A stretch of DNA of 64,000 bases from IMG/VR virus record IMGVR_UViG_3300013125_000006, positions 13,265 through 77,264 of that record. One strand, given 5' to 3'. Below are positions 1 to 30,288 of the stretch, in pieces. The notes beneath the pieces were generated by a model, which was not told where the DNA came from, made no database searches, and saw only the letters and a program-made list of their open reading frames with translations. A program made the position numbers and the translations under genes. Source of the DNA: a virus. How positions within the stretch are numbered: the first letter of the stretch is position 1; each line of letters starts with the position of its first letter.

Positions 1-1
1 A

Positions 2-6000: not shown

Positions 6001-9000
6001 GCTACTATTAATGTTGATGAAAATGGAGAAGAAACATATGAGTTAAGTAATTTTGATGATTCTGAATTAAATACAAATACTGAAGAGGGAATAACTGTAA
6101 AACAGAAATTACAATCTATTATAGAATCTTATTTTAAATTATTTAATATAAATCCTTTAAATGCTGAATCAGTAATAGAAAAATTAAATACTCAAATAAC
6201 TTTAGAAAATAAAGAAGTACTAAATCAGATTTCAAATATACAGAAAAAAGGAATATTATCAGAAGAAGATTTGAATAAAATAGAGGAATTAAAGTCTAAA
6301 TTATATAACTTTAAAATAGGTAATATAAATGAAACTCCAAGAATTAAAGAATTATTAGAGATATCCAATTTAAAAATTACTAACAAATTAGGAGAGTTAG
6401 GAATAACCATGGATGAATATAATAAGTATTTATTCAATAAGAGCAATGAGAATGTATTTTCTAAAACTTTTGAAGAATTATTATCCAAGTTTGAAACAAA
6501 AGATTGAACCGATTTAAACAAAGATCAATTACTTGAATTTTTAACAGAATTAAATACTCTTGGAATAATTGACTTTTCTTTAACAGAGATGTCTTCAATT
6601 TCTTCAAATGCAAGAGAAATTATAGAAAATGAAGTGTCAAAACTTAATAACTCTGAATTATCTGAATCTGAACTTTTTGACATAAAAATTTTATTAGAAC
6701 CATTTATAAATACAATTAAAAATATTATAGATTCTAATAATTCAATGCTTAATAATGACTCCTCCAAATCTTTTGAGGAATTTATTAATGATGAAGTAAA
6801 TTCAGTTAATGAACAGAAAGAAAAATTAAAGCCAGAAATATTTAAATTACATAATTATGCATTAGATTTATTAATAAAAGAATTGGAATCAGGCAATGCG
6901 GATAAAGAAGTTTTTCTGGAGACAGAAAAACTAATTAATGATGAAAAAATAGATTTAATAGCAAGAATATTTCCCAATATAAAAGATTTTGAATATTCAA
7001 AATTAGAGGAAACTATAGATTCTATAGTTCTTTTACAAAGTAACTTACTAAATGAATTTGAAGACTTTGAAAATGACATAGGAACATATTCAGAGCTTAG
7101 TGAAATAAGAAAGTTAATTGAAGGAGAGGAAGAGGCTTTTAAGAATGATTCAAATTATAAAGGAATTTTTCCAAATATAGAAACATTAAACTTCATTAAA
7201 AATAATTATGATTTGGGATTATCTTTAGCATCACTAAATGTTGCCCTTAAAGATTCTATTAAATCACTTAGTGATAATAAAATTGTTATTGATAAAATAA
7301 ATAAATTTAATGATTTAGTCTCCAAAGGAATATCTTTGAAATCAAATCCTTTATATGATTTTATTAGGAATTTTGTATTAACTTTGTCATCTGGTTCGGA
7401 AAGCAAAACTACTAAAATTTTTGATATACTTGAAAGAGAGGAAACTATGTTAAAATCTTTATCAAGTGTAACTAATTACTTGGCAGAGGATATTAAAACT
7501 CAGGATTTTTTACAGGCTATTGATTATTTAAAAATGATTAAGGCAGTAATAAATGCCATGTCTACAACTAAAGTAAGTTTTGGTGAACCTTATGGATTTA
7601 TTCAGAGTAGAATAAATTATGCAAATAAATATGATAAAGAGAATGATGTTTTAAAATTAAAAACAATTTCTTCTGATTTAGCATCATTAATGGCGCAAGA
7701 TGTAGATATACTAATTACTAAACTTGGATTCTTAAAAGAATTATCAATGTTTAATAAGGGAAAAATGACACTTGAACAAGAAGAAATAAGATCAAGAGTC
7801 GAAAATCTCCTAGTTGATAATTGGAGAATATCAATGTCTAAAATAAATCCATCATTTTTACCACTTGAAAAAATAAAAGAAATATTAGCATCTACTGAAA
7901 GTAATTCAAAAAAATTAATGCAAATAGAAAATGTAGTATTTTTGCATAATGTAAACAACAAAGAAAAAGCTTTAGAGGAGTTTATAAAAAATCTTGATTT
8001 TGCAGATTCTGATGAATTTTCTCAGATGGATAGAAATATATCTAAATTAGAACAGTGAGATTTGGCTGTTTATTATGCCACTACTCTTGCAATGAAATCT
8101 GAGGATTTTAGTATAAGATCTTTTATTACAGTAAATAGTGAATTTAATAAAGCACCATTCTTTACACAAGAATTTGCAGCAAAAGTAGTAAAAGCAAGTA
8201 CTATTAATCCCGAATTATTTGCTAAAATTTTAGAATTAAAGAAAAATTCAGCAAAAACTACAACAGATTTTATTACAATAGTACTTGGAGGAGCTGGAAC
8301 AGGAAAAACATCTGCAATATTTGGAATGGATATTGACAATTTTAGACAAACAAATAATAATACAAATATATGAATTTCAGCTCCGGCTGATTTACAAAAA
8401 AATAATTTAGTAAAAACATTAGAAAATTCTGTTGGAAAAAATAAGCTTACAATAGAAGATTTTAATAAAGCTAAACTATTTGAAAAATTAGGCATTTCAG
8501 AAATAGCAGAAAAAATAATATCTGAAATTTCTCAAATAGAAGATGATAAGGTAGTTAAGGAATATGTTAAACTTGAAAATGGTATTATTACTTTAACTGA
8601 TAAAGTATTAAGTAATGAATGAATTACTGATATAGAGGAAAATTTAAAAAATCTACCTAATTTATTATTAATTGACGAAGTAACCCATTTCTCATCTTTT
8701 GAACTATATTTATTAAATGCTATATCTAAACATTCTTATTATAATAAGAATTTAGGTTTTATGAAAATAATTGCAGCTGGAGATCCGACTCAATTAGGAT
8801 ATCTTGCTAATGTTAATAAGAATTTCTATAGTTATAATGTAGACGCAATAAATGCTATTTTTACCCCAAGATTATGGTCAAGTGTCAGATCTTCAAATGG
8901 ACAAAAGAGACTAAATAATGATAGATATATAAGAATAGTAAGAGAAATTGAAAAAATATATAAAAATAGTAAGGGATATTATGATAAAGCTGCAGAAGAT

Positions 9001-12000
9001 TCTTTAAGATATTTAAGGAACAATGTCGAATTAAATACTCTTTCATATTTTGAGGCTCAAAATGATTTTGCTGGAGATAAGATAGTAACAGCGCTTAATA
9101 AAGAAATAGTAACTACAATAAAGAGTCAGATGGATAAAAATCCTGAATTTACTTTAGGAGTACTTACTGAAGATGGAAAGCTTCCAGAAGATTGGAATAC
9201 TTTATTAAGTGAAGTTGGGTTAATAACACCAGAAGACACATCAAGAATAAAAATATTTACCCCAAGTAATATACAGGGAAGTGAAGTAGATTATTTTATT
9301 TTTGATGCAAATCTAATTAAAAAATATGACAAAATAAGAGACCAATTAAAAGCATTTTATACCTTTATGTCGAGATCTAAAGTTGGGTCTTTTATAATTG
9401 ACAGTAGTAATATACTAAGTAATTTAAATATATTCAATGGAAAGAAAGATTTATTTCCTTCTAACTTTGAATTAATGACACCTGAGGTAATAAAAAATGC
9501 AAAAGAGAAAAGAATAGAAGATCTTAAAAAACTTCTTGGAGAAAATCTACAAGTATCAGATTATGATAATTTTAAGTGAGATATTGGAGAATTATCTGAT
9601 CAAGAATTTACAGACTCAAGATTTGTAACTAGTGATATTCCAGAGCCATTGGATTTAAATGAAAATTCAGACGTATCTAAAGGAGAAAATTTAACACCAG
9701 AAGATTTAAAAAATGGCTTTAAAATATTAATGCATAGTTTTTACAATAATCCTAATGCAATAGTAGATACTAAGACTAAGACTATCAAAACTAATTCTAA
9801 TGCTATAAATTCAGACTTAAATTTTATTTCTGATATAGGCAGTGATAAATTTAATGGGGTGATTTCTAGTTGGATAAAATTAAAGAATTATGTATTAAAT
9901 AACCTATCACAAAAACAAATTAGAAGTAATGATTTTGAAGAATTCTTTAAGGAGGCTTTTAAAGGAGATGTAGATTCATCTGAATTAATTTCAATAGAAC
10001 CTATTTTAACTGCAACTAAGTATAATAAAAATATAAATACACCATTTGCTAAACATGGATTTAAAGAAGACAAAACCTTAGGAAATGGTAAAACATTTAT
10101 AACCTTATCTGCAAAATTAATATTAGGTCAAAAAGTACATTATATTACATTAGCTGCTTTTGGTACAGAGGAACAAATACTTAAGAAAGCTACAGAATAT
10201 AATGTTGACAATGTTAAAATTGAGGAAAAATTTAGAGAAATAGAAAAACTTCTTGAAGCTTCTCAAAATAATTTCTTAGAATTACCAATAGATGATATTG
10301 AAAATATAAAAATAATAACTAGTACAAGATTAGAAAAAGTATTTACTAACAGTAACAAAAGAGTTACTTATGACTTAAGTTCTCTAGAAGAAAATTTCCC
10401 AGGAATGAATATAAGTGAAATTAGATTTTTCCCAAGAAGTTTAGAAGAATTTAAAAAACTACTCAAAAAATATACTTTTGGGCCTGAGAGATTTTCAAAT
10501 CAAGGATTATCAGACAGTGAGATAGAAAAGAAGATAAAAGTTCTTTTTGAGGGAAATAGAGACAAAAATGGGAAATTAATAAAAGATGCTGATGGTAAAA
10601 CAAATTCAGGATTAAAAAATAAACCTTATATAGTAGTTTCAACTAAGGAAGATTTAGATGGAAACGAAAATGTAAACACAACACAAGCAGTTTTAATTCC
10701 AATAGGTTCAAATCAAAGAAATTTAGATACCTTAACAAAAGAGGTAGAAGATTTACTAGAAGAGAGAAGATTGGATATGGAAAATGGGTATACTAATAAC
10801 AAAAAAATAAGTCCAGAAATAAATGCAAAAACTGAAATTTTATTAAATAGATCAGATATATTAAGTGTATTGATAAAATGGGGAAAAACAAAGTATGATA
10901 ATGGAACATTATTAGATTTGTTAACTAAAGAAATAGAATTTTCATTGAGTGATACAGTAACAGGAAATAAAACTTCAGTATTTGATATCTTTTCTAGATT
11001 TAAAAATAGCAATGCAGAAACTTCTGTAGCCTCTAGGGAAAATATGAAAAAAGTTATAGACTTTGTAAAAGAAGCTCTGGCTAAAAATGAAAATGCAACA
11101 GTTGCAGAGATAAAAGAATCTGTAGTATCTAAAATGGATAAAATGACTGGATGGCATTGAACATTTTTCAATATTTTTGGATATGAAAAGATCATATCAG
11201 ATTTAGAGGATGAGAAATTTTTAGAGCTAATGTTAAAAGGAGAAATTAATGACAAAGTTTTAGAAGTCTTTAATAATTCTAAAGGCCATGAAGAAATGAA
11301 AACTATCCTGAGTACTTTGGTACAAAGTTTAACTGGATTTAAATTCTATTATTCAATCCCAATTAAGCCAGCAAAAATAGAAGGAGGACCATTTATTGTA
11401 AATCCTGCCATTGATGGCTCTAATGGATTTAAGAAAGAATTATTTGCTGATAAATTTTTCATAAATGTAGCCCCAGAAGGACCAAGATTGTTATTAAATA
11501 TAAATACATTTTTAACGGCAGTTCCAATAGACCAATCACAAGTTATTTCTACTCCGCCTGCTCCGCCTGCTTCAAAAACTACTAAAAAAGCGACTAAAAA
11601 TAAAGTAGTTCCAGAAGTATTGGATCAAACTTTAGTCTCTGATGTTAAGTTAAATTCTTCTCTAAATGAAGATTTAAAATTAGCAAATTCTTTAGTAAAA
11701 GAATATGAGAAAATAGTAGGAGTAGTTAATCCTATGGATACTATGACTAGAATAGCAAATTTCTTAAATAAAAATTTCAAATGAGGAATTTCAGAAATAG
11801 TTAGTGATGGTGAAAATTTCAAATTTACTACTCCAAATGGAGACTTTGAAATTAAGGCAGAAATTGTTGGAAATAAAATTAATAATTTATTAGATCAATT
11901 TGTAACTGCATATTTCGTAGGAAAGCATATTAATCCATCTGAGAATTTTGAAGACTTTGTATATAAAATAGGAAGTCAAATAATATCAGAAGATATTAGA

Positions 12001-12273
12001 GAAAATCTAAGTTTGGTATTAAAATCAATTAGTAAAATAGTTGGAGAAGAAAAACTTATTAAATTAATAGAAGATAATGTATCTAATTCAGCATATGATA
12101 TGTTAGATGATGTATCTAAAATAGAAGTATTAATAAATGGATTAGGATTATCTGTTTCAAAAAGTGGAATTTCAATCAAAGAGTTATGGGAATTTCTACA
12201 AATAAGTAAAACTGATCCTCAATTAAAAGCAATAAAAGAACAAATTAATAATTTGTTAGAAACCTGTAAATAA
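3061..12273 (+). CDS. Giant virion cargo/ejection protein (~3070 aa) with SF1 helicase-like domain; 10 in-frame TGA
   Basis: All ORF pieces from 3061 to 12273 share one frame and are broken only by TGA (4039, 4594, 5665, 6505, 8056, 8371, 8620, 9577, 11158, 11782). Motifs: Walker A GGAGTGKT (~8287), Walker B LLIDE (~8670), AGDPTQL, QGSEVD and FMSRSK. Gly/Ala-rich hydrophobic helices in the N-terminal part. Confidence 0.85.
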
Positions 12274-12282
12274 ATATTATAA

Positions 12283-15200
12283 ATGAGTAAATGTGATGTA
12301 AAATATATAGGAAAAATAATTAGTCAAATAGACGATTTCTTTCTTATAGAAGAAGACAAAAGCCTAGAAAATTTAGAATCATATGTCAAAGAAGGGATTC
12401 CTGGGTTACACCAGGACTTCTCTTTGGAGACCTATATTAAAAATTCAAAAGACTTTAGTGATATGTTTTCTGGATTAGTTGAATTATATGATCTATCTTT
12501 AGACACCTATATAAAAGGAATAGATTCAAAATTTATAAACACAAAAAGTAATGTATCAAGAAATTTTTCAACAGATAGAATAGTTGATTTATTCCATACC
12601 TTACCATTAGCAAAAGCAAGATTTGAAAACTTTTCAATTAAAAAGATTTTAACTGCCTTTTTAATAGGACAAAAGTCATCAAATAAATTCGTATCTTCTA
12701 ATTCAGAAATTTCTAAAAATTTTACTGCATTAAAGAATGATTTGTTTTTAAAAATACAAGATTTTTTAAGTAGTAAGAATATTATTAAAAAATCTGAAAT
12801 ACAGGATTTATACAATAGTAATGGAGATATAATAGACTATAATCATTATAAAAAAATAATGAATCTTATAGATGATTATTTCTTCTCGGATGAATCAAAG
12901 TTAATTAAGACATATTCAAATAAAAAAGGTATTCCAAACTTATCCATGGATACAGTAGAAAATTCAGATTTATTTGATTCCTACAATGCTAGTATATTAT
13001 TATCTAATTTTGACTCTGTATTACAGGAATATTTTAGTGGAATAGTGGATATAAATTATAACTTATTTAATAATCTAAGAAGTAATTTAGAATCAGGAGA
13101 CAAATATTCTAAGAAAATAGAAGGAATAAAAACAGAGTATTGGAGAAAAGATACTCATGAGACTGAAAGCAGTGAAGAGGGAGAAAGTAAACTTATAAAG
13201 CTACTTGTTTCCACAATTCCAATATATAATAAGAAAGGTATTGATAGCGGAGTAACTATGGAAATGAAAGATCTATATCTTATAGCTGCAATGATTTCTG
13301 ATTTTGAAATTGTAAACGGAAATAGATTAAAAAATAAAGAAGGAAGCAATTTTATATATTTCAATGAATCTCCTAAAAAAGCATTGTTACAGTATTTGGA
13401 TAATGTGGATAAAGCTTTTAATGGTTTAGATGGGGATACTTTATATAAAGAACATTTTCAATATAATTATGAGTTTATACTATCACTAAAAAAGTTTATA
13501 GAATCAGAAGAATTAAATATATTATCTAAAGAAGATAATTCTAAGGAATCTATTATAGAAATGATAGCCCAAGTTATAAATAATAATTTTGGAGCATCCT
13601 ATCTCACATATAATTCTAATGGTAAATATACTATTAGAGAAATGTATAAACAAAATTTTAATACAATTCATTTGCAAGATTCTGTATTTGAGAAAATCTT
13701 AAGATCTAAAAATGAAAAATTATATGATGTAGAGAAGAATAAAGATGAAATAGATGAACTTTTTAAAAATATAAATGATGGAACAAATTTACTGCTAATT
13801 CCAAAAGAAGCTAAGATTGCAATAAATAGTTATATTGGAAAAAGGACAGGAATATATTTATCTTATCTAGGATTTGACGATTTAATAGTAGATATTAGAA
13901 AACATCAAGAGAACCTTACAGTAACAGGATTCAAAAATATGCTTACAAATTTTAGTAATGCTGTCATTGAAGATAGGGCAAGAATAAAAAAAGCAGTAGA
14001 AAATAAACAAATAACTGATACTAGTAAAGATATAAATTCTGGGGATTACATACAATCTCTAAATAATAATTCTTTATTTAAAGGACATATAAATGCATTT
14101 CTAATAAATTATCCAGTAAAAGCAGTTATGAATATTAATTTATTAAGTGGTGAGAAATTACCAACTTTTAAACTGGCTAATCTTACTCAAAAAGATACAG
14201 AAATATTTGAATTACAGAGAGATTTTGAAAAATCTGGAACTTCGTTATTTAAGAGTCTTCTAATAAAAGATACTCCAGCTATATTAGGAACAGGAACTAA
14301 ATTAGAGCTGATAAATGGAGAAGACAATAAATCTGCATCAAAATTTAATATTCAAGAAAATTTTACATCAGACTTTCAATTGGATTTCTTAAAAAATATA
14401 GAGAGTAATGGAAACTTTTCAATAATGCTAGGGAATTACTCTGATAAAAATACTATATTGACAAAAATAATCAATGGAAGTTTTAAAATTCAAGGTAATT
14501 CAAAGACTATTTTACAATATTCTCAAAAAGAATTATTAAATATTGTAAAATTACAAGGAGGAAGTTTTTATAAAAATACGTTAGTAAATGTATTAGCTGA
14601 TTTAAATTTCTTATTAGGAAGAACTGATAAAAGAGTAGTAGAAACCAATGTTAAGAAAATAGAATCTGATATAAAAGAATTGAATATAATATTAGAAAAT
14701 ACTGATGTAAGAACATTATCAAAAAAAGCATCAGATAATGGTATTAAAATATTAGAAGAACTACATTTTTCAAAATATGAAGGAAAATTTAAATTAAATC
14801 AGTTACTTGTTGACAACTATAGAATATTTAATGATGATGATTTATTTAATGATTTTGTAAAATTACAAGAAAATGAAGTAATAAGGAAATTTAAAAAATA
14901 TAATAAATCATCAGAAATTAAATTTCTTAAAGATATTGACTTAAAAAAAATATCTGAGAAATTAGGAATAGAAGAAAAAGAATTTCCAAAGAAGGAAACA
15001 AATGGAAAGGAAAATATAGATTATACACAAATAGAATCTTCTGGAGAACTTAATCCATTACTTAAAAAATGGTTATGAACAAATGCTTTATTTAGAAATG
15101 AATATTTATTTGTAACAGGAAAAGGTGAATATATGCATCCTCATAAAGTCAAGAGTTTATCTTTTAGAGGAAATTCTAATGGATTATTATCAAAAAATGA

Positions 15201-18200
15201 TAAAGAAAAAACCGCATATTGGAAAAATTTCCAAGAAGAAATGAGTGGAAGATTATCTTCTATGGCTAAACGTAATGTAATTTATACAGCAACAATAGAA
15301 TCACCAGTAAGAAATAGCAAGTTAGGAGTTCCTGATGATATAAATATGGCTGTAATAGATGATCACAGAGATGAATTATTTAATATAACTGGAAATACAA
15401 AAAATCAGGAAGTACATGATGGTTCTTCTTATATAAATTATATATACAGTTTAATGCTCGATAATTCTTTTCCAGGAAAAGGATATAATGGAACAAAAAA
15501 ACAATTTGCAACATTTGTTACTGAGTCTGGAGTAACCATAAAGAAAGACGCAGAAAGTGTAATAACAAATAGAAAAATACTTGATTCAAGAAATTCAAAG
15601 ATATCTTTTTTAGGAAAGCAAAAACAAATGCTTGGAATTGATGTTCAATTACCAGCTTCTTTTAAATTTAACGAATCTTTTAAAAATGAATTCTTCTTTA
15701 ATAAATTAGGAGTTATATATAGAATAGAAACTATAGATATTACTAAAAATAACTATGCAATGGTTGTATCAAGGAAAAATGGAAATAAATGGACATTAGA
15801 ACAGGAGCCAATTTCTGGAAAATTTAATAATTTATATCAATTATGGGAATTATTTGGAGCACAATATTCAACTGATATAGACAATAATTTTAATGAGGGT
15901 TCAAATGAACTATTGTATAGAATAGTAACTACTCAGAATGGGGAAGGAAAATATCCATTAAAAAATGCAATGATTCATGTATTATCAAATATCTCAGCTG
16001 TAAAAGCAGGAGCTGCAAATGTTAATGATAGAAAACTATGAACATCAGATGAACCATTAGCCTATACATCATTTAAAAATAGATTTATGGGACCTCAGCT
16101 TGATGCTTCTCATGATGCTAATGATTCAAGAATTAAAGAAATTACTCAGGTAATATCTTCCTTAGCTCAAAATTCTGATACAGCACATTTAGCACAAGAA
16201 GCATATGAGGATATAGCAACTGTAATAAAGAATGCAGCTAAACCATATGTAAAATATATGAAATTTGGCAAGGATATAAATAAATCTGATTTATATAAAT
16301 ATTTATCAGAGAAATTTGTAAAAACAATAGAAAATTCTAAAGGAGATAATATAGCAAAAATACTTGTTCAATCTTTTTCTCAAGATACTATAATACCTTT
16401 TAGTAACCAAAATTTCTTTATTCCTTTTGTAAGAGATGTAATAACAAGAATGAATAATGAGTTTATTTCAAGGTACTATTCTGGAATAGGGGCTGTTTTA
16501 ATTCCATCACATGGTATTATACAAGTATATGATATTCCACAGGCAGATGGTACAGTAAAAATAATGACTCAAGCAGATATAACTAAGGAAGCTTTAAGTG
16601 CAGGTATATTTGAAGGAGTAGCTTCAAATGATGAACTTATAGAAGCCCACATAAGAAAAATAGCTCCACCACAAGACATAACTTGGGGCGAAATAATGCT
16701 TGGAGATACTGTAGAAGTACCAAAAGAACCAAGAGCTGAAGCCAGAGAATTATTAAAAAATAATTTGGGTTTATTACAATCATTAAAAGATCAATATGGA
16801 GACAATGAATTATATATAAATCAATTAGTTTCTAGATATTTAGATTGAAATTTTGGAAATAATAAAATACCGAAAGAAATAGATTTTAATAATTTTAACA
16901 TTTTCTTAGCAGAAGATGCTTTATCAAATGATACGAGTATTGAAATGCAGGAAGTAACCTTGAGTAATCCTGATATATATTATTATTATAAAGAATTACA
17001 TAGTGGAAATGAACCTGTAAGAAAATTAACTAGACCAAGAGACTTAAAACCAAGTGAAATAACTTTTACATGAAATGGAAGAAAAAATCTATTTGATTTG
17101 GATTCTATAAGGCTTAGATATAAGTTCGAGAAGATGTATAAAAATAAAATGCTTAATGAATCTGACAAAGAGTTTATTCATTTAAGTAATTTTTATACTA
17201 AAGTTTCAAATGGCAGAAATCTTATTGAGGACTTTAAAACTGATAGCACTCAAGCAAGTAATATATTAATTAAGTACCTAAATCTATGAACAAAAAGAAA
17301 TTTAAACTTATTAGAACTTAATAGGGTAATGAAATCTGTAAATACTTCCACAATGGATGAAATTTTCGGGGAAGATAATTTAGTAAAATTATTTAGGGAA
17401 GTTAAAGATAGTTACATGAATATAACAGAAGAAATATCTGATTATGATTTTAAAGCTGCAGAATTAATACTAGGTAATTTATATAATTCTAAATTCAACA
17501 CTGATAGTAATAGTTCAATATATGAAATAAAATCTAAAGGAAGTGAATACTTTAAAGAATCTTTAGAAAAATTATTTGAAGAGGATTCATTTAAAGCAGA
17601 TATGAAGTTAATAGTAGAAGGAGTAGATCATCCAATATATATAAAATATACTGATAAACTTCCAGGAAATGATTATAAATTAAATATAAAACTAGAAAGA
17701 CCTCTTGATAATGGGGATATTACTAGAAAATTTGTTAGACTTAATGAAAAGGGAGAAAAAATATATGTAATTCCAGACCATAATTATGTAAGAGCTATAG
17801 AGCAAGACGGAAGAGAAGTTATTTATGTAAAAGCTGCCTCATCAGTTAAATCTAAAGAAGGTAAAATTCTAAATATTGAAGAACCCTTTAAAGAAAATTT
17901 AGCTAATCTTATAAATTCTTTTGAAGGATCTATAAGAACTATAGTTCCATTAATGGGTTCTGACAGTGATATAGTTGATAAACTTAAATTAAATAAAGTT
18001 ACTTTAAATGAATTTTCAAAATTTTCTAATTATGTTCCAATAGATAAAAATAATTTAGATACTGAATGATTTGAATTACATAAAAAACATATAATAGATA
18101 AATTGAGTAAAAAAATGTATGCTTCTTGAGAAAAATCTCATGAATTTGTAGTTGCACGTATCCCTGCTCAATCTATGCAATCATTTATGCAAATGCAAAA

Positions 18201-21200
18201 TATTGCTTATATGCAAGGAAATTCAAATGATGCATTTGTATCAGTTTGGCAAATATGATTACAAGGCAGTGACTTTAGATAATATTGGAGTCACTATAAT
18301 AAATCTCGTTAACTGCGGGGAACTCCTGAGAGTTTTTACTACAAACTTAGACTAGTAATAGATCTAAGGGCTATAATTAACTATTATAGATATTGTAAAA
18401 AGGTAAAAAATTGGACAATCCGCATCCAAGCGTCCTAGATAAAATTTATAAAAATATAGACTTTTAAATGGATAAAATTTTATAAATTTGTATTTAGGAT
18501 GAAGGTTCATCGACTATCCCGGAGGGGAGTAGAAACTTTCATTTAGTATTAATTATTAAATGAATTCATTATGTTTAAAAGAAAAATTACTAAAAAGTTA
18601 AATGTAGAACAAAAGCAATTACTTATTGCTTTATTATTAGGAGATGGAACTATTTCATCTAATTATGTTTTTAAACTTTCTCATGGAGAGGATCAATTAG
18701 AATATTTAAATTGGAAGATACTACTTCTAGATAGTTTAAATATAAAAAATAATGGTTTAAAAACATATATATCAAATTCAGGATATAATACTGGTAAAAA
18801 AGTTTTATATTCGCAAATGTCTTTAAATGCTACTATAAAAGCATTAAGAAGATCTGTTTATTTACCCAAAAAGACTTTATCAAGAAATCTTTTAAATTGG
18901 TTAAATACTCAGGGACTTGCAATTTGGTATATGGATGATGGACATATTAATGTTAATACTTCTAAGCAAAGGACTACTATCCAACATACAATAAAGTTTG
19001 CAACTTGTGTAAAGCTAGAAATAGCAACTATAATTATTCAATATTTTTTAGAAAAATGGGATATAAAATTTAGACTTTTAAATGAAGGGAAAAATACATA
19101 TTCTATTGCTTCTAGTACGGAAGCTGATGCTGAAAAATTTTGTAAAATTGTAAAACCTTACATACAACAAGTTCCTAGTTTATTATATAAAATAAGAAAA
19201 GATTTAACTAAAGAAGAATTTATTCAAAAACAAAATGAAGGTTTCGAAATGCGAGACATTATATATTAAATATAATGAAGATATAGTCAGTCTTTGTATG
19301 AAAGTATAAAGGTTAAACGGATATTGATAAAGCTTATATGCTTGGATCTGGATTTAGTTCTAATGGACAATTTGAAGCTATATCTAAGATAAGTAATTAT
19401 TCTAGTATAGATCAATTAAATGTGCTGGAAAAATTTCCAATACCAACCAATAAGAAAATAGAATTATCTACAGATGGTCTAGATTTAACAAACGAAACCA
19501 AAGAATTTTTTACTTATAGTAAAGAAGAGTCATTAACAGATGTCATAGATAATATTGAAGAAACAATTGCAATGAATGAATTATCTGTAAAGCAATTAAA
19601 TTTACTAAATATTATAATAAGAAAAGTTAATGATTATGTAAAAAATACTGGAAATAGAAATGTTTTTACAACTGATAATAATAAGGATGCAAAAATATTA
19701 ATAAATTTAATAAATAAGCATAATCTAGATAATGGGTATGTAAAAAATAAACACTCTGTAAAAAATTCCATTGTATCAAAAATAAAACAAATCATATCTT
19801 CTCCAAGTAATCAAATTTTAGCAAATATTCCAGTAGATGTTGAAGTTTGGCAAAATGCTGCTAATGCAGCAATAGCCTCAAAAAACATAGAAAAAGAATT
19901 TTTGTCTTCATATGATATGTTTAGTTATTATAAACAACAAAGAGACGCATCAGTAGGTAAGGATGATGTTGGTATAGCTGCTAATGGACTTAAAGTACTG
20001 TTTGCATTAACTAGTTATTATAACAATTACTTCAATAATTTTTCTTCAAATAATTCAGAGGATATAAGAAGAAGTAATAAAACATTTATAAAAGAATTTA
20101 AATTCTCAAATGGAAAAACTTACAAAATTGGTGCTATTAGTGATGTAGGTATGGATGATTCTCAAAAAGCTGCAATAGAAAAAGCTATTGGTAATTTTGA
20201 TGCATTTAGAAATGATGCAGCAATTTCTTTATCTAGTTTTACATCTGCAGCAACTGATAATGCTAAAGAATTACTTATGGCAAAAATTAATGCAACAGTA
20301 GAATTAGCTTCAATGCATATCTATTTACTTACATTAGGATTTACTCCTGGTCAAGTTTCTGAAATAATGACATCTGAAATAATAGATGATGTAATCAGTT
20401 CATTAGAAAGTAACTCTTTACTAGGTGAAAATAGTAGTATTATACCAGTTATATTTAAGAACTTAGAAGGGACATATAAAAACAATGAATCAAAATCAAA
20501 TGACTTAGCAGTACTAAAAGATATATATGATGGAGCACAGGAAATTAAATTCTTAGCAAAAATCTTAGGAGCCAATCAAAAGAGATCTGCAAATGTAGAA
20601 AAAATAAATGACTTTTTAACATCTTTAGAAACTACTCTATATGCTAGAGAAAATAATGTGTTTGGCAATGATTTAAGACTTCTTAATGAGTGAAATAAAT
20701 ATAAAGATTCTCCAGATAAAGGAAAAGCTAAGGAAGTAAGAGAAGTATTTAAGGGATTGGTTGATAAAATTATGCAACATAATAAAGCATTAAATTCAAA
20801 ACTGGATAGAAAATATGTAGAAGATTTACTTGAAAAAGCTAGCAATGTATCAGTAAGTTATGTAGATGAACAGGGGAAAAGACATTCTAAGTATGTAAGT
20901 ATTATAGGAGGAAATTTTGATTTTAGATATTTTGTAGATGGATCAAAAGAGAATGATGAATACAGAAAATTAACAAAACAATATTATAATTTAATAAAAA
21001 ATACTTATAATATATTTGATGTAATTGATGAAGTCCCACATTTTAAAGAAATGATAAATGGAATAATGCTTTCTCATAATATCTTAATGAATACTTCTAT
21101 TAAATATGCAACTGCATTTACAGTAGTAAAAGATGTATTAAGGGAAAATTCTCATAGAGTAGTATTTAGTGGTAAGGAGGATAATCCTAACCCAAGTATA

Positions 21201-22274
21201 AAAAATCAAATGGGAAATCCAGGATTATATCCACGTATAAGTGATCAAATGATAACTAAATCATTATCTGGTATAGATGTTATGTTAAAATCAAAGTGGT
21301 TAAAAAGTGAAGCTACTTCTAAATTAACTTTTAATGTAACTAGTTTAATAAAACAATTAAATGATTATAATAGAGAAGCTAAAAAAGATGTAATAAAAAA
21401 TTATTTAGTATATACGTCTGACGAAGCTTGGAGTAATGATAATGTATCAAACTTTTCAAAGAAAGTAAATGAAGAAGATGCAGAAGATACAATAATAACA
21501 TTAGACACTAATTATGGCATTGCAAATTTCAAAAGATTAATGGAAGATATATTACTCCCATTATTACAAAAAAATTCTAATATATTATTAGACTCCTTAA
21601 AAATACAAGAAGTAAAAAATATATTTGGATTAAGAACTTCTGGAATAGTGTCTACATTTTCATTAGGAGAATTAAACAATGCAGTAGTTAGAGATAAAGC
21701 CCAAAAATTAATAAAAGCATTTAATGATTTAGACAACAACTCAAGTACTAAAAATTTAGTAAAAAATTCAGCAAATGAATTATTAAGATGAAAGGATTTA
21801 TTCTATGTGTATAATTTATTATTAAATAATGAAAAATATGGAAGTTTAAGATTAACCCCACTATTTGAGGATTATATAAAAGAAAAAGATTCTTTAGGAT
21901 ATGATTATGTGATGTTTTCTTCAAAGATAGATTCAGGAGAAATAAATTTATTTAGCATAGAGGATATTATGAACGAATATCCTGAATACAAGACAGCTTT
22001 AGAATCTGGGGATACTGAAACAGTAGAAATCATAAAAAGAAAAGCATTTAAACAACTTTCAAATGATATATTATTCTACGCTTTACAAAGTGGAGGAAAA
22101 TTAACTATAAACAATGGGGCAAGGACTAATGAGAAATTATCTGTTACAAATGGAGATTTCTTAGTAGTAACATCAATTACAGAAAGTCAAGATGCTAAGA
22201 AAACACAATCTGAATTTAGTGAGGTACTAAGATTACTAAAAAGCAGAGGATTTATAATTAAATTTGAATGTTAA
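12283..22274 (+). CDS. Virion-packaged double-psi-beta-barrel RNA polymerase (~2982 aa). Exons 12283-18276 and 19320-22274; 10 in-frame TGA
   Basis: Splicing restores ARIPAQ...(W)LQGSDF|DIDKAY, the DFDID catalytic motif of crAss-like/phi14:2 gp66-type RNAPs. Other conserved-looking blocks: VHDGSSY, KDDVGIAANG, SAATDNAKELL. TGAs at 15076, 16039, 16846, 17071, 17287, 18067, 18127, 18256, 20691 and 21789. Confidence 0.9.
18277..19319 (+). mobile_element. Group I intron within the RNAP catalytic motif
   Basis: 5' exon ends in U (agtgacttt) and pairs with the IGS ggagtcact. Core elements: aactgcggg, aatccgcatccaag, ttcatcgactat and aagatatagtc. The intron ends in G and its removal restores the frame and DFDID. 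Confidence 0.92.
18571..19269 (+). CDS. Intron-encoded LAGLIDADG homing endonuclease
   Basis: Motifs IALLLGDG and LAIWYMDDG; lies inside the RNAP intron. Confidence 0.9.
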   Translation: MFKRKITKKLNVEQKQLLIALLLGDGTISSNYVFKLSHGEDQLEYLNWKILLLDSLNIKNNGLKTYISNSGYNTGKKVLYSQMSLNATIKALRRSVYLPKKTLSRNLLNWLNTQGLAIWYMDDGHINVNTSKQRTTIQHTIKFATCVKLEIATIIIQYFLEKWDIKFRLLNEGKNTYSIASSTEADAEKFCKIVKPYIQQVPSLLYKIRKDLTKEEFIQKQNEGFEMRDIIY

Positions 22275-22277
22275 ATA

Positions 22278-25200
22278 ATGGGAAAGTGTAAGTATATTTT
22301 AGAATTACCTGGAGGGGGAGTCATAACACTCCCCTCAGGTTTTGAAACTTTGGAAAAAAGTAAAACAATAGATAAATTATATGATAAATATTTTTCATCT
22401 AATAATGATGAAGAACAGCAGGAAGTGTTAAGAGAATTATCTGGGTCAATAAAAGCTGAAACTAAATATAAAATAACCCCTGAAAAAATAAAAACTATTA
22501 TATTAAAAAATAAAGACAAAGAAACCTTCTATAAAGAAATAAATAATATAATAGAAAATTCAGGTTCTTTTGATTCTCTTGGATCTGTATTATATGATTA
22601 TTTATCAGAGGATAAAGGAAAGAACTATAATAAAAGGTTATCAGAACTAAAGCAGAAATTACAGAAACCTAGAAAATTAAGTTACTTTCAAAATATAGGA
22701 GCTTCTGGAACATTAGGTTTAACAAATTTAGTACAAGAAAGATATAGAGTAAATTCCAAAAATGAAGAAAATAAAATATTTGGATTTTACAATGATACTA
22801 CTAAAAATCTATTAACTTTCTTAAAAATTCTTGCTGACACCTATAAAAATAAAAATAGAGAGAATACTATATATGGAATACAGGGACAATTTCTAGTAAA
22901 TGCATGGTCCATGGATGATATAGTATTATATGAACTTAACAATGATTTGTCTCTATTCTTAGGACTGTTTAAAAGAGAAGCATTAAAAGTAGATAAATCA
23001 AAACTTATGCCAATCTTAAAAGAAATAAATAAGATTATAAAGTTTAAAAAGTATGGAAAAATAGACATTAATGAAGAAGATTTTGATATAAATAAATTTT
23101 TTATAGGGGAATTGGAAAATAATAAAGTGCAGCAGTCACAATTAGAAAAATTATTGGCATTAAGTACTGATAAAGATATATCAAAACAAATTGATCAAAT
23201 ACTTAATTTAGTTGCATTAACAATAAATCCAGAAAGTTTGGGATTAATAAAATCAATTAAAAATTTATTCTGGCAATTATTTCCAGAGACATATGGAAAG
23301 AACAATATATTAAAAGCTGTTGAAACTGAGAAATTTATAAGTAAAGAATTAGAAATAGAAAAGGTATACAAGAATGATTTACTTCCATTTGATAGAATGA
23401 GTTCTCAAGTCAGAGATCATAACTATTCAATAATACAAACAATAGAGGGAGACTTATATGAGAATAGTGTAAAAAATATTATACCATATCAGGATATAGT
23501 AAAGTTTCCTAGTGGTGACAAGGGTGTATTTGCATTAGTAACTCATATTTTTAAAAGAGGAGAAAATGTAATAGTCTATGGTAAATTTAGAAATCAATAT
23601 GGGGAAATAGAAAGAATTGATAATGTTTTTAAACCGGGAGAACTTCAATATAGAAAACTGGAAGATCCAATATCACCAATGATAGAGGATGAAATAGTAT
23701 TACCAAATGATGGGATGATGATAATATCAAAAGCTGAAATGAATCCAAAGATAGTAAAAGAAATAATATCTAAAGGAGATTTGGTAAATGGAAATCTAGT
23801 AGTAGGAATATATCCAAATGTAATATATGTGCAGACTCCAGATAAAAAAATAAAATCAATTGGGTATGGAAAAATAAAATCAATGAAAGCTCTCAAAGCT
23901 TCCCAACTAAATAATGATAAAAAAATAGAACCAAATAAATTTGTACAAATAAATGATGGAACTCAGTTAACAAAAGGAGATTATTTTTTATTTGAGTTAG
24001 ATGGAAAAAAATTCTATAAGAAAATACTATTGGCGGATGATACATATGTATACTCAATTGTAAAAGGTACAAAAGGAGCCGCGATAATGCAGACTGAAAA
24101 GAAGAATTTAATAGGCTTAAAGGATGCAGAAGGTAAACTTACTATTGAGGATATATTAAGATTAAAAGAGGAAGTTAAAAATATTACTAGAAGTACAGCA
24201 ACAATGTCTTCTTTCAGCAATAAAGAGCAAGCTAGACCAGGAGATTTTTTCTTTTTTATGGATGGAAATACAAAAAAATATGGGGAAGTCTTGGAAGATA
24301 ATAAAGTAATAACATATAATGAAGATATTACTGATAAAATAATTCTAAACTTAGATAAATTACCAGAAGTATTATTTTTTACTGATAGAGATATTTCTAC
24401 AGATTATTTTTTATTTACTATAAGAAGTAACCAATTTGAAATTTCATTTAAAGAATATCCTGATAATGTAGCACTTGAAAAACAAGTTATATATGTAATA
24501 CCAAAAAATTCAGATTTAAATAGTATTAAATTATTAACAGGAGGATATGCAAATATAGGAAGTTACATAGAACCAGAATATTTTAACCCAGAAAAACATA
24601 TAGATATTACAGATCTAATGAAAGAAAAATTAGGGCTGGATAAAAATCAAAATATGTGAGTTACTAAAAAATCTTCGGAAAGTAATAAATTCAAAAGAAA
24701 TTTAGAATCTTTAATGGAAATAAAATATTTTGATTCTCTAGATTTACAAACTAAAAAAGAACTAGGAGTATTATTTCCTGGAGTATATTTTTCTTTATAT
24801 AAAGCTAATGAAATAGATTCAAAAATTTATAGAGTAACTTCAGTTAATGAAGACAAAGTAATTGCTCATTTTAATAGTATAAGTCCAACTGGAAAAATAA
24901 TAACAGTTGAAAAAGAATTTAATATTGATGATCTTTTAAATAGGGGAAATGATAAAAATGCAATAGTAGGAAGTATAGCAAATTTATACATACAAGAAGG
25001 AAATAGAAAAATAGGAGCAGTATTAAAAGAAGTAAATAAAGTGTCTGAAGAGGCAAAATTGGAATCTAGACCAGCTACTAATAAAGCAATAAATAAACTA
25101 ATTAAAAGTTTATCAAAAATATCTAAGAAATTAGATATGGAAGTTTCTTTAGTAGAGGAAAAAGAAGGAAATTTTAAATCAAACCAAAAAGCAAAAATAG

Positions 25201-25682
25201 AGACAAATAAAAAGGGAGAAACAAGAATATTAATAAATAAAAATATAGGACAAACAGAAGATGTTGTGCACGAATTTTTACACTTATTTTTAACTCCTTT
25301 AAGATATAAACATCCAGAAATATATCATTCTCTTATTCAAACTGTGATTAAAAATCCAGATATGAACATAACTGATGCAGAAGAAATATTTGTTTCATAT
25401 GTAGCATCAAAACTAGAAAGTCAGGAAGATTTTTTAGAAAGTTTCCAGGACATGGAATCTTTTGTAAATGGATTAAAAGTGGCATTAGGAGAAGTAAATG
25501 ATGATTATATAGTAAGCTTTGAAGAAGATCCTATAGAATTATTAAAAACCCCATTAATGGACCTATTTCAAATAGATAGGAATGATATAAGCAGTGAATT
25601 AATGAATTTAGGAATGGTTACAACTGAGCCAATGATGAGAGAATGAATGAAAAATAATAATATAATCTTAAATTGTAGTTAA
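22278..25682 (+). CDS. Virion cargo protein (~1134 aa) with C-terminal zincin (HExxH) motif; TGA at 24657 and 25644
   Basis: ORFs 22278 and 24714 share a frame and are joined over TGA. Motif VVHEFLHLF at ~25265. True stop is TAA at 25680-25682 (...IILNCS*). Confidence 0.82.
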
Positions 25683-25683
25683 A

Positions 25684-28600
25684 ATGGGACAATGTTTTTA
25701 TTATAAAAATGGCGAAAAAGTAGAAAATATTCAGGATATAATAAAAAGTTTTTTCAAAGACAACTTTCAATTAAAAAATGCCGCAATATTTAGTAGTACA
25801 GAAATTCAGTCAAGTACAATAGATGCTATAAAGAAAATAAAAGACACAAATTCATTTTCTAATAACGAAGAATTATCTGTTACTGATTTAATTACAAAAC
25901 AAAATGTTGGTCTTTTTAATTTGTTAGGAATATCCACAAAAGGAGGAAGATTGGCCCCAGAATATATTGAAGAAAATAGAATTTACAGTTATGTGAAAGA
26001 AAAATTAGATTCTATAAAAGATGATGTTGATATAACAGGATTAGAATATACTCAAAATAAATTAGAAACTTTAAAGAATACCCCTGAGTTTTCAGGAGTT
26101 TCAGAAAATAAATTAGTATACTTATTAAGTCAAATAGAATCTGATATTAAATATGAAGAGGAAACTAAGAACTTCGGAATATTATTGCATGATGTAATAT
26201 CTTCAAAAATAAGAGATACTGGCTATAAGAATAAGGTGTTAAAATATATAAAGGATAATAAAGGGAATAGCATATTAGGAGACTATTCAGATGAAGAATG
26301 AGTAAATAAAATTGATGAAATTTCTGATTCAATAGTAGAGAAAATAAAAAACATAGAAAAATCTGGGGCTTTTATAACTGAAATTTTTCTATCAAGTCTA
26401 CCAAATACTCCTATAAATACATATTCAAAAGGATTAAAGGGTAAAATAGACTTAATAGCTGTAGACTCAAATGGAGATCCTCATATCTTTGAAATAAAAG
26501 TATCCAAAACAAATTACGATGATTGGGACGCAGCAAAAACATTAACATTAGATTGGCAGCTTGCTTTATATAGACAATTGCTTGGACAACACGTAAATAT
26601 AAACAAAACAATGCTATACGTTATTCCTGTTTGACTAAGTGTAAAAGGTAATCCAAATGGAATTATTGTTCAAAATATTGTAAATAGAAAGTCAATAAGA
26701 AATAGTGGATTGAACGATACTGGAAGCATAACAGTAGCAGCTAATAAAATAATTCCAAGGGCAGTAATAGCAGATTATGATCCAGAAAGAATGGATATTT
26801 TAACAGATCAATTACATAAATTAATCCCAAATTATGAAGTTAAGACTGGGATAGAGGATTATGATGTAGATTCAATAATTGAAGCAGCAAGGAAAAGGTA
26901 TGACAAAGAAAAAGTTTGAAGAAAATGGAACAATTTTGATGATGCACCTGGACTCAAAAAAGGTTATATAGAGGCTGCAACAGAAGAGGAATTTAGAGAT
27001 CAAATTGAAAAATATGTAGCACATGTAAAGACTCAAGTAAATAGAAATGTATCTATATTAAAAGATGCTATTATATCAGCTATAAAAACTAATAATCCTA
27101 TTCAAACAAGTTCTTATAATTCTGAGAAAGACATCACGACTAATCACCTACTCAAAGAATATTTAAACGAAGAGTGGTCTGTAATTGATAGTATTCCTGA
27201 GGCATTAGCTATGGGATTAATAGTATTGAAAAATAATAAGAATGGAAACATAAATTTAATTAGTTTATCAGCAAATCAATTTTATGCAACTGCATTAGAA
27301 AATGATTTACCAAATGTGAATTATGGAGATTTAGAGTTTTTAAAATCATTTTTATTTATAAATACTTTTAAAGATATGCTGATGCCACTTGGTAGTGGAA
27401 AATTAGCTCAAATAATAATATATAATCCATTAAATAATCAAGTATATTCTAGGAATACCTATAATAAATTTGATGAATTTGTAGATAGAATGTATACTAT
27501 AGGGTTTAGGGAGGAATTAAAACTAGATAAAGAAAAGCACATAGCTGGAATAACAGATATTGCTTTGTATAATCTAGATGCAAATTTAAGAAAATTTGAT
27601 GGCTCTAATAAAGATGAAATAAATGAAATTTTTGCAAAGTTTAGAGAAACTAGTTTAGATGAAATAGATTTGGAACAGTTGATTGATATACAAAGAACTT
27701 TGTATGAAAAATTTCCAGACTATAAATTAAAAACTATAAATCCAACTTTAAACTTTGATGATCCAAAAGAAGTTTTATTGGCATTGTTACAAGTAGCAAT
27801 AGTATCAAAATCTCAAATGGATTTAACAGGGGATTTTCAAAGACTTTCAAAGTTCAGCTTTGGATTTTCAGATTTTAAAAGTTTAATAGCTGCATTATAT
27901 ACTGATAATTTAGAGAAATATAATAGAGAAGGAAAAAGAATACAAGGAATTGTTCAAGGGCTTATATGAACAACTCCAGATTGAGTTGCTTCAAAAGACT
28001 TAAAAAACATAAATAAAATAATGTCCACTGCGAATCAGCATATAGGAGAATCTATGGTAGCAATATCAGAAATTATATATGGGCATACAAAAAAATATTA
28101 TAAAGAGATAGGATTTAAAGAATTTAACCGAGGAGTTATCGGAGAAACACAAAGTAAATACAAAGATTTGTGGCTTCAAAAAGACGGAAAAGTATCAAAT
28201 GAATTCAAAACCAAGAATCCATATGTAGTTGATAATGAAAATATACTTACTGATGCTCAACGAGAATATTTAAAAAATATATTGTTTATAATAAATGTAT
28301 TTCAATATCACATACCAGATTCTGAGGCAAAAAAATTAGACCCTAATAAATTAGAGTCTTTAATGGAAAATGCCACACTTAAAGAAGCTATTGAAAGTGG
28401 TGAGTATTTTGAAATGCCTGTAATAAGGAGGGAAGAAATTTCTAGAGTCGGCGGGATTGTAGAATCTCCTGGAAAGTTATGGCAAGATAAAATAAAGCCA
28501 TTTATGGGAGAGATAAACGATTTAGTAGATCCAAGAGAACTTCTTCCAGATCAATTGGATATTATTGAAAAACAAAAGATGGGATTTTATGAAATGTATG

Positions 28601-30288
28601 ATGTATATGGTAGGCAAGATAGTAACTATATTGCAAAAGCAATTGAAAAACATACAGTAAATTATTTTGAATGGAACTTAGATACAATTGCACATAGAGT
28701 TGCATTTAATAAAATCAGAAAATTTACTATGGATAAAAAACTTCCTATTATAAATGCTTACATATGATGGATTAAATTTTTAGCTGGAAAAGAAAATGAA
28801 GATATATCAAATCAATTGGAGTATATCTCAAATCAGATGAGTCTGTCTATATATGATGAACCAATAATTGATGATGAATTTAAAGATTATGCAAAAGTAA
28901 CAGCAACTTTGAAAAGATTATCTACTGCAATGTTATTAGCCTTTAGACCTGCGTTATTTGTAAAGGAAATGACCATAGGATTATTTAAAGGAATGTCTTT
29001 AGCAGCTACTCAAATATATGGAAAAGATCAATTTACAGTGCAGGATTTAAGTTCAGCATATGCAAAACTATTAGCAATAGACCATAAATTCTCTGAAGAA
29101 TTTAATTTAATTGATAGACTAAATCACTATTACAGATTTGCGAATATGGATGTTAATACAATATCTAAAAAATTGCAAACTGATAGACATGGACTATTCA
29201 GAGGAGTTGGAAGATATATGTATATGTGTAATACAATTCCAGATTATTATAATAGGTTATCTATATTTTTAGCTAAAATGATTCATGATGGAAGTTATGA
29301 AGCACATAATTTAATTGATGGAAAATTTATATATGATGCTACTAAAGATAAGAGATTTGAATATTATCTTGCTAATAGAAAAAACCATATGAAGAATGGA
29401 AAATATATTGCTGCTCAAAGTGATAAAAAATACAATGAGCAAAGGCAGAGATATCTAATTCTCCAAGATCAATTAAATAAGGAATATAGCGGAGAAAGAG
29501 TGTTTACAGAATATGATGAAGAATTAGTTCCAAAAGCATATTCAGAAATAGAAAGAACAAGTTTAAAATCTTTCTCTGATATGGCTTATGGATATTATGA
29601 TAAAGATGCTCAATCACAAGCAAATAATACTTGGTGAGGAATGACATGATTACAGTTCATGCAATTCTGGCCAGGTAAAATGAAAATGTGATTTGCTACT
29701 CCATCAGAAGAAAGTCCAATGGGAAAAATTCAACACAAATATATAGTAGATAAAGATGGTACTAAAATATACCAATACCATAAAACAATAGAATCAGAAA
29801 ATGGAAATATATATACAGAAGAAACTGAGGAAGATACTGGTGATCCAGTATTAGAATGGGTGGGAACTCCTTATGAAGGATTATATTATTCTGTCGTAGG
29901 AACTTTAAAAGATATATTTACATTAAATTTTTCACACATAAAGAATTCAGAAGAAAGAAATAGAAGAGCTTTAATGGCACTTGCTGATGCTGGATTAATA
30001 TTTATGTTATTTAAATTTGTTCAAATACTACTTGATTCTTTTATAGAAGAAAATGGAACAGATGGAATATCTGGAAGTTTAGCTTCAATGTCTAGCTCCA
30101 TAAATAAGAAGGTAACAAATGAATATAATGTATATCAGAGTACACTTGGAGGAGTTAGTTCAGAGCCTGTATTTTTATCTTGAGGAAAGAAAACAGCTAG
30201 TGATGTATGATCTGCATTGAATGGGGATAAAGATATCACTGAGGTAATGACTAGAAATGTCGGTGCTGCAGAAGTATTCAAATGGTAA
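25684..30288 (+). CDS. Giant virion cargo protein (~1534 aa) with PD-(D/E)xK (RecB-like) nuclease domain; 11 in-frame TGA
   Basis: Single frame to TAA at 30286. Motifs GILLHDVI ... GKIDLIAVDSNGDPHIFEIKVS ... WQLALYRQLL (26175-26585, mostly missed by the ORF track). Hydrophobic C-terminal helix ALADAGLIFMLFKFVQILL. Confidence 0.83.

Follow-up and report, generated by a model that had tools for sequence, protein, structure and literature searches.

Paired terminal cysteines in the giant cargo proteins of crassviruses suggest a head-to-tail disulfide chain

We analyzed a 64,000-nucleotide stretch of viral DNA, hereafter the window (bases 13265–77264 of the 77,264-bp IMG/VR virus record IMGVR_UViG_3300013125_000006, 43% complete by CheckV; G+C content ~26%), in which four consecutive genes, A to D, encode giant cargo proteins that include a virion RNA polymerase (RNAP) of the kind found in crassviruses. 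Together, A–D contain 7 cysteines in about 8,715 residues, and 6 of the 7 sit at the three gene junctions, one within a few residues of each facing protein end. This placement recurs across the order Crassvirales whatever the arrangement of the genes, and the number of cysteine pairs equals the number of breaks between the proteins. From these sequence comparisons, we propose that the cargo proteins are probably tied head to tail by inter-protein disulfides, which would turn them into a linear, threadable pseudo-polyprotein.

Results

Cysteines at the facing ends of four giant proteins

A–D were translated with genetic code 4 (TGA as tryptophan) after removal of an intron from B. Gene A (3061–12273, + strand), the first link of the chain, encodes 3070 residues with a P-loop/helicase-like region and a Pfam AAA_19 match (E 7e-6). 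Its single cysteine, residue 3069 (TGT codon 12265–12267, + strand), lies in the terminal sequence ETCK and forms the donor end of the A–B junction. Gene B follows on the + strand in two exons. Exon 1 (12283–18276, end approximate) begins MSKC, with Cys4 at codon 12292–12294, and ends WLQGSDF; exon 2 (19320–22274, start approximate) begins DIDKAYMLG and ends IIKFEC, with the cysteine (codon 22269–22271) as the last residue of the protein. Once joined, the exons encode about 2,977 residues and reconstitute the DFDxD catalytic motif of two-barrel RNAPs (QGSDF from exon 1, DIDKAY from exon 2), which reads LQGSDFD[VI]DKAYILG in unsplit relatives. Judged by its sequence, B is a crAss-type virion RNAP.

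Gene C (22278–25682, + strand) encodes a 1134-residue zincin with its HExxH motif at residues 998–1002, and its sole cysteines are Cys4 (22287–22289) and Cys1133 (25674–25676). Gene D (25684–30288, + strand), the last link, encodes a 1534-residue protein with a Pfam PD-(D/E)XK nuclease domain; it contains Cys4 (25693–25695) and an internal Cys1182 (29227–29229) and has no C-terminal cysteine. An earlier inspection of the DNA letters (the sequence-only reading) had labeled A–D as helicase, RNAP, zincin and nuclease, and these names hold at the motif level (AAA_19, DFDID, HExxH and PD-(D/E)XK, respectively). A PHROGs search with A–D returned no match.

Read up to the stop codon and on from the next start, the junctions are TCK/MSKC (A–B), FEC/MGKC (B–C) and NCS/MGQC (C–D). 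The outer ends of the set, MEISKP at the N-terminus of A and EVFKW at the C-terminus of D, are cysteine-free. The sequence-only reading had counted 7 cysteines in ~8,700 residues, six of them at junctions and none at the outer ends, and it was correct in every detail. Only two additional cysteines are encoded in the A–D span, both in an open reading frame (ORF) that is carried by the intron and is not part of B. The probability that at least 6 of 7 cysteines would fall by chance within the 24 facing-end positions is 3e-15, and we conclude that the terminal cysteines are not placed by chance. TGY codons occur at 7 of 8720 codons of A–D in frame, compared with 102 in frame +1 and 327 in frame +2. 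The early genes of the window contain 124 cysteines in 9401 residues (1.3%), a rate at which A–D would hold ~115.

The C-terminal cysteine of C is visible only when the TGA at 25644–25646 (+ strand) is read through, as the sequence-only reading had pointed out; left unread, this codon keeps the cysteine hidden. It encodes Trp1123, which aligns with a nearly invariant tryptophan across 44 homologs of C, and homolog fragments called with translation table 11 stop at the equivalent position, at EPMMRE. More generally, TGA-encoded tryptophan is restricted to + strand late/virion genes (1–30288), with 2–11 TGA codons per giant gene when the exons of B are counted apart, and almost none is needed in the early/replication genes on the − strand (30334–64000). 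ARAGORN found no tRNA in the window, so a suppressor tRNA, if there is one, would be encoded elsewhere in the genome.

Terminal cysteines in the clade of the window

The terminal-cysteine rule is kept at 17 loci of the wider clade to which the window belongs, under three genetic codes: TGA as tryptophan in loci L002–L011, and TAG as glutamine or the standard code in L012–L018. Relatives of A end KKC, QCK or RCK, and relatives of B (36–55% identity) begin MSTC, MSTPC or MSKC, often with this cysteine as their only one. In L002–L011, the A proteins end in C or CK; the B proteins start MxxC (MxC in L011, and with the cysteine at position 6 in L010) and end in a cysteine followed by at most one residue; the C proteins start MxxC or MxC and end Cx; and the D proteins start MxC or MxxC and have no C-terminal cysteine. 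The claim that the N-terminal cysteine is always residue 4 thus describes the window well but not its relatives, in which this cysteine is found at positions 3 to 7. Cys1182, the internal cysteine of D, recurs nearby in L007 (residue 1201) and L010 (residue 1188) and is absent in L008, L009 and L011.

The giants of L012–L018 are not cysteine-poor, and a cysteine is found at every facing end despite 2–15 others per protein. The zincin protein of these loci is short, at about 360 residues. We also considered whether the break point had moved between the clades with long and short C, and rejected this: in short C, the C profile matches nothing beyond the zincin region, and in the adjoining B proteins it has no match at all.

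Additional homologs came from a HMMER search with C in a library of 1.8 billion representative proteins, which recovered 110 relatives, 46 of them full-length; searches with the single C protein in IMG/VR and a phage collection gave no match, and a profile was required. Among the full-length homologs, 44/46 have the N-terminal cysteine, 43/46 the C-terminal one and 42/46 both, and in 35/46 these two are the only cysteines in the protein. Only 12 of the 99 cysteines in their combined 54,747 residues are internal. Cys4 of C is as invariant as the HExxH motif (H998, E999 and H1002 are fixed across 44 homologs), and Cys4 of D is invariant like the nuclease-core residues G264, K272 and S274. The homologs of C that lack one or both terminal cysteines are P0023 (an N-terminally short call), P0031 (a call cut at TGA), P0115 (a marginal match) and P0067. 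The last of these, the only apparent case of an N-terminal cysteine without a C-terminal one, is truncated by ~65 residues, and its locus was not found in the viral and metagenome contigs that we searched.

Terminal cysteines in cultured crassviruses

The same rule is found in cultured phages. BLASTP pairs the giant proteins of ΦcrAss001 with those of Cellulophaga phage phi14:2 as gp47/gp078, gp50/gp077 and gp49/gp076. In phi14:2, the sole cysteine of gp078 is its last residue, gp077 (the RNAP) contains only Cys3 and Cys2179, and gp076 contains only Cys3. In ΦcrAss001, gp47 has only Cys2339 of 2341 residues, gp50 has Cys5, Cys2404 of 2412 residues and one internal cysteine (residue 1334), and gp49 has only Cys5. 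Because gp50 and gp49 are encoded on one strand and gp47 on the other and the rule is nevertheless kept, the signal must lie at the protein level rather than in the DNA or mRNA of the junction. Consistent with this, 80/80 IMG/VR loci related to the ΦcrAss001 RNAP (36–100% identity) comply, with the first gene on either strand, and the 47 loci related to ΦcrAss002 also keep the pattern. Terminal cysteines that are conserved in homologs and paired with one on the adjacent gene product, which the sequence-only reading had suggested looking for, are therefore present across the order.

In both of the phages above, the cargo is part of the virion: mass spectrometry has detected gp45, 46, 47, 49 and 50 in ΦcrAss001 virions, where they are invisible in cryo-electron microscopy (cryo-EM) maps, and gp078-gp077-gp076 in those of phi14:2 (gp67-66-65 in Drobysheva et al.). 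Like the window, the cultured sets (gp47-gp50-gp49 of ΦcrAss001, gp078-gp077-gp076 of phi14:2 and gp32-gp33 of ΦcrAss002) comprise giants with a DFDxD RNAP, a zincin-bearing neighbor and terminal cysteines. This analogy suggests that A–D are packaged in the virion and ejected into the host. The window differs from the cultured crassviruses in its four-link chain, in having the zincin and the PD-(D/E)XK nuclease as separate proteins, in reading TGA as tryptophan and in carrying an intron within the catalytic motif. The position of HExxH also varies: in ΦcrAss001 (gp47 residue 2157; locus L019) and ΦcrAss002 (gp32 residue 1814; locus L022), the first chain protein carries it close to its C-terminus, and in phi14:2 it is in the last chain protein (gp076 residue 245). 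The zincin domain may be carried by a different chain member from one lineage to the next, or these HExxH motifs may be chance matches.

Protein breaks, fusions and introns

If the cysteines serve to join separate proteins, their number should follow the number of breaks, and it does: there is one pair in sets of two chain proteins, there are two in sets of three, and there are three in the four-protein set of the window. ΦcrAss002 provides a natural fusion. Its gp33 (4245 residues) is an RNAP fused to a gp49-like protein, with the junction at about residues 2450–2700, and it is cysteine-free between residues 2140 and 3119, so that there is no cysteine pair at the fused junction. A cysteine-free stretch of ~1,950 residues spans this junction in the 47 relatives of ΦcrAss002, with single-cysteine exceptions in L130 (residue 2651) and L139 (residue 3364). 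The break that remains in phages of this type keeps its pair, with gp32 ending FVCS and the giant beginning MSC. Fused homologs without the pair were another comparison put forward in the sequence-only reading, and the gp33 junction is such a case. In the clade of the window, a search for longer homologs found no fused B–C or C–D forms, which is weak evidence.

The MSC start that is conserved in the 47 relatives corresponds to codons 33–35 of the annotated gp33 ORF (L022, 11242–11340), and the annotation is probably 32 codons too long.

The intron of B (18277–19319, bounds approximate, + strand) falls exactly within the catalytic DFD/IDK motif, and L011 is interrupted at the identical site. 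It carries the ORF with the two additional cysteines (18571–19269), which encodes a LAGLIDADG_2 endonuclease (Pfam E 2e-21); a search of the intron in Rfam matched no intron family. There is no cysteine pair at this interruption, nor at the RNAP-gene introns of L056, L075, L094 and L099, in line with a rule that applies to true protein ends alone.

Structure models and neighboring genes

The AlphaFold 2 monomer of C (mean predicted local distance difference test score, pLDDT, 82.5) has an N-terminal β-hairpin (residues 3–9 and 15–23), and its C-terminal tail (1127–1134) is unpaired coil; the two termini are not paired with each other. The model weakly speaks against a staple between the N- and C-termini of one chain. 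A short hairpin was also modeled at the N-terminus of D (strands 6–8 and 11–13), and we gave it no weight at its pLDDT of ~50–60. Residues ~400–900 of C (23480–25000) are modeled as a string of small β-barrels, and a Foldseek search of the PDB with the C model produced only very weak matches (template modeling scores below 0.1) to Spt5 KOW/Tudor-like β-barrel repeats.

The tail genes upstream in the record encode 4–6 scattered cysteines each, and there are none in the cargo-like block beginning further upstream. Within the window, the cargo-like genes upstream of A (1–3045, + strand) likewise encode no cysteine; they are the 3' part of a 1419-residue ORF begun upstream of the window and a 635-residue ORF (1138–3045). 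An upstream protein of 1426 residues matches a virion structural PHROG. Among the early genes, residues ~411–566 of the ribonucleotide reductase large subunit (46960–49467, − strand) match endonuclease/terminase-like PHROGs instead, and this region may represent an intein or an inserted homing endonuclease.

Discussion

How might the paired cysteines work? Selection has stripped cysteine from the cargo proteins A–D, as it is known to have done in N4-like phages, while sparing one within a few residues of each facing end. In the oxidized virion, the C-terminus of A would then pair with the N-terminus of B, that of B with C and that of C with D, yielding a linear chain of ~8,700 residues (~1 MDa) with a stoichiometry of 1:1:1:1. 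Because the links would sit at the extreme ends of the proteins, such a chain would be topologically like a single polypeptide, linear and threadable. The proteins could be packaged together and pass through the narrow tail one after another, in a set order, and reduction in the host cytoplasm would free the separate enzymes. The sequence-only reading had proposed that the cargo is linked covalently in gene order. The head-to-tail tie at the core of that proposal is partly supported by order-wide conservation, by its independence of strand and adjacency, by the agreement of pair and break counts, by the fused junction that lacks a pair and by a precedent in the cyanopodophage A4, in which a disulfide joins two giant proteins in this manner (PMC12002296). 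Disulfides between subunits are also known from other parts of ΦcrAss001 virions. The bond itself, the wiring of the cysteines, the order of ejection with threading and the reductive release are what we infer from the pattern.

Several observations weigh against this proposal. A disulfide at a cargo terminus has never been observed, biochemically or structurally, in any crassvirus. Because the cytoplasm in which virions assemble is reducing, bond formation would need to be a late event that takes place inside the capsid or once the cell has lysed. The pair counts fit equally well with an arrangement in which the middle proteins are stapled N- to C-terminus and the first is bonded to the last. 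We looked for a natural case in which both cysteines of a pair were lost together at an unfused junction and found none. Finally, phmmer found no match between the proteins of ΦcrAss001 and those of the window, nor did hmmsearch with the C and D profiles against cultured crassvirus proteins, so the equivalence of chain positions between the window and cultured phages rests on motifs and gene order.

An intramolecular staple would bond the N-terminal cysteines of B and C to their own C-terminal cysteines and leave those of A and D to bond with each other or stay free. It satisfies the cysteine count of three- and four-protein systems equally, and both ends resemble short β-strands able to pair. 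In ΦcrAss002-type phages, however, there are two proteins with one terminal cysteine each, on different chains, and the fusion removes both junction cysteines while the N-terminal cysteine of the RNAP stays. The wiring seen in the A4 structure is between proteins, the C-terminal tail is unpaired in the model of C, and a closed loop would be harder to pass through a tail. We regard a staple as very unlikely. The cysteines might instead bind a different partner. Candidates are capsid, portal and scaffold proteins, a metal site shared by two cysteines, and lipids or other modifications that serve in packaging or in insertion into a membrane. Terminal cysteines are chemically versatile, and inter-subunit disulfides do occur elsewhere in ΦcrAss001 virions, between structural proteins. 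Such partners do not account for the consistent lack of a cysteine at the N-terminus of the first protein and at the C-terminus of the last, or for the loss of both cysteines at a fused junction. The shared metal site, which the sequence-only reading had offered as an alternative to the disulfide, fares poorly: a junction supplies only two ligands, with no conserved histidine or second cysteine nearby. Neither a signal peptide nor a lipobox is present. Overall, another partner seems quite unlikely.

It is also unlikely, in our estimate, that the proteins are not covalently joined at all and that the cysteines are kept for the docking of strand-like termini or for a function that begins once the proteins are ejected, for example redox sensing or polymerase activation. 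This reading agrees with the fact that the bond has yet to be seen in a crassvirus, and recombinant phi14:2 RNAP has been purified, assayed and crystallized with dithiothreitol (DTT) or tris(2-carboxyethyl)phosphine and is active alone on DNA. Against it, cysteine specifically is invariant in proteins otherwise purged of this residue, which argues for thiol chemistry, and in A4 cysteines placed in this way form a disulfide. At the nucleotide level, matched TGT codons could act as take-off and landing sites for ribosome hopping or as an element of translational coupling, and in the window paired TGT codons do flank each stop within 18–27 nucleotides. This explanation has next to no chance of being right. 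In ΦcrAss001 and most of its 80 relatives, gp47 or its counterpart is encoded on the strand that does not carry the RNAP gene, yet the protein ends in cysteine all the same, which already refutes it; moreover, an ATG always stands 2–6 codons before the N-terminal cysteine, and spacing and frame vary among loci. Programmed translational bypass of the T4 gene 60 type was rejected on the same grounds, as the rule persists when the genes are on opposite strands. A split intein with trans-splicing, which would call for an N-intein of about 100 residues with cysteine as its first residue and a C-intein that ends HN before Cys+1, was rejected as well: the cysteine is last or next to last in the upstream protein and residue 4 in the downstream one, and Pfam finds no Hint or intein domain in A–D.

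Crassviruses are the most abundant phages of the human gut. The storage and delivery of their RNAP cargo was restated as an open question in 2026 (PMC13434306). A rule of one cysteine pair per protein break offers a concrete model that can be tested cheaply in cultured phages. If the head-to-tail chain exists, gp47, gp50 and gp49 of ΦcrAss001 (262.5, 276.9 and 154.5 kDa) would be expected to form a single species of about 690 kDa that is sensitive to DTT, and the chain would explain the order of ejection, the stoichiometry and the tolerance of this module to frequent gene fission and fusion. It is conceivable, though we suggest this only tentatively, that a disulfide-stitched pseudo-polyprotein is the general way in which crassviruses, and perhaps other podophages whose ejection proteins are giant, handle ~0.7–1 MDa of cargo. 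It might fix the stoichiometry, order the feeding into the tail and make reduction the switch that both separates the proteins and activates the virion RNAP, with a cysteine pair replacing a peptide bond so that fission and fusion come free. The rule is also of use in annotation, since it marks true start codons, as is probably the case for ΦcrAss002 gp33, and exposes stop-codon recoding, as in C, whose C-terminal cysteine appears only when TGA is read as tryptophan.

A close comparison within the order is the fused gp33 of ΦcrAss002, which resembles the proposed chain in holding the same modules in one chain, with a peptide bond in place of the disulfide proposed for the window; disulfides would imitate this fusion post-translationally. 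Drobysheva et al. noted the fused RNAP polyprotein of some crassviruses and proposed proteolytic cleavage rather than reductive release. We found no description of the terminal-cysteine pattern in the Crassvirales literature that we searched. The earlier suggestion that the pattern might be undescribed therefore stands for Crassvirales in searchable papers but not for phages in general, given A4 (PMC12002296). New in the window are the version with four proteins and three links, the C-terminal cysteine behind a recoded TGA and the internal control provided by the intron.

Outside the order, the ejection operon of Schitoviridae (N4 gp50, DEV gp71-73; PMC11445570) encodes ejected giants, including a virion RNAP, that are almost cysteine-free, and the suppression of cysteine has been attributed to passage through the periplasm (PMC11445570). 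Unlike the proteins of the window, these have no conserved terminal cysteine, and no covalent chain has been proposed for them. In A4, a disulfide between Cys1715 of gp27 and Cys5 of gp26 was seen by cryo-EM in the pre-ejectosome inside the capsid (PNAS 2025, PMC12002296). In the genome of Anabaena phage A-4L, Cys1715 is the sole cysteine of gp27 (1717 residues) and Cys5 the sole cysteine of gp26 (1114 residues). As in the window, A4 and A-4L have consecutive giants that are otherwise almost cysteine-free, the upstream one with a cysteine no more than about 5 residues from the C-terminus and the downstream one with a cysteine no more than about 5 from the N-terminus. A4 differs in having one link rather than three, in belonging to the family Saffermanviridae and in having no RNAP among gp27 and gp26; its pair is part of a fivefold pre-ejectosome ring, and the A4 paper draws no comparative rule (PMC12002296). 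A phmmer comparison of A4 gp27 and gp26 with the proteins of the window and of cultured crassviruses gave no match at E ≤ 1. We conclude that the window and A4 resemble each other in mechanism and not through membership of a common family.

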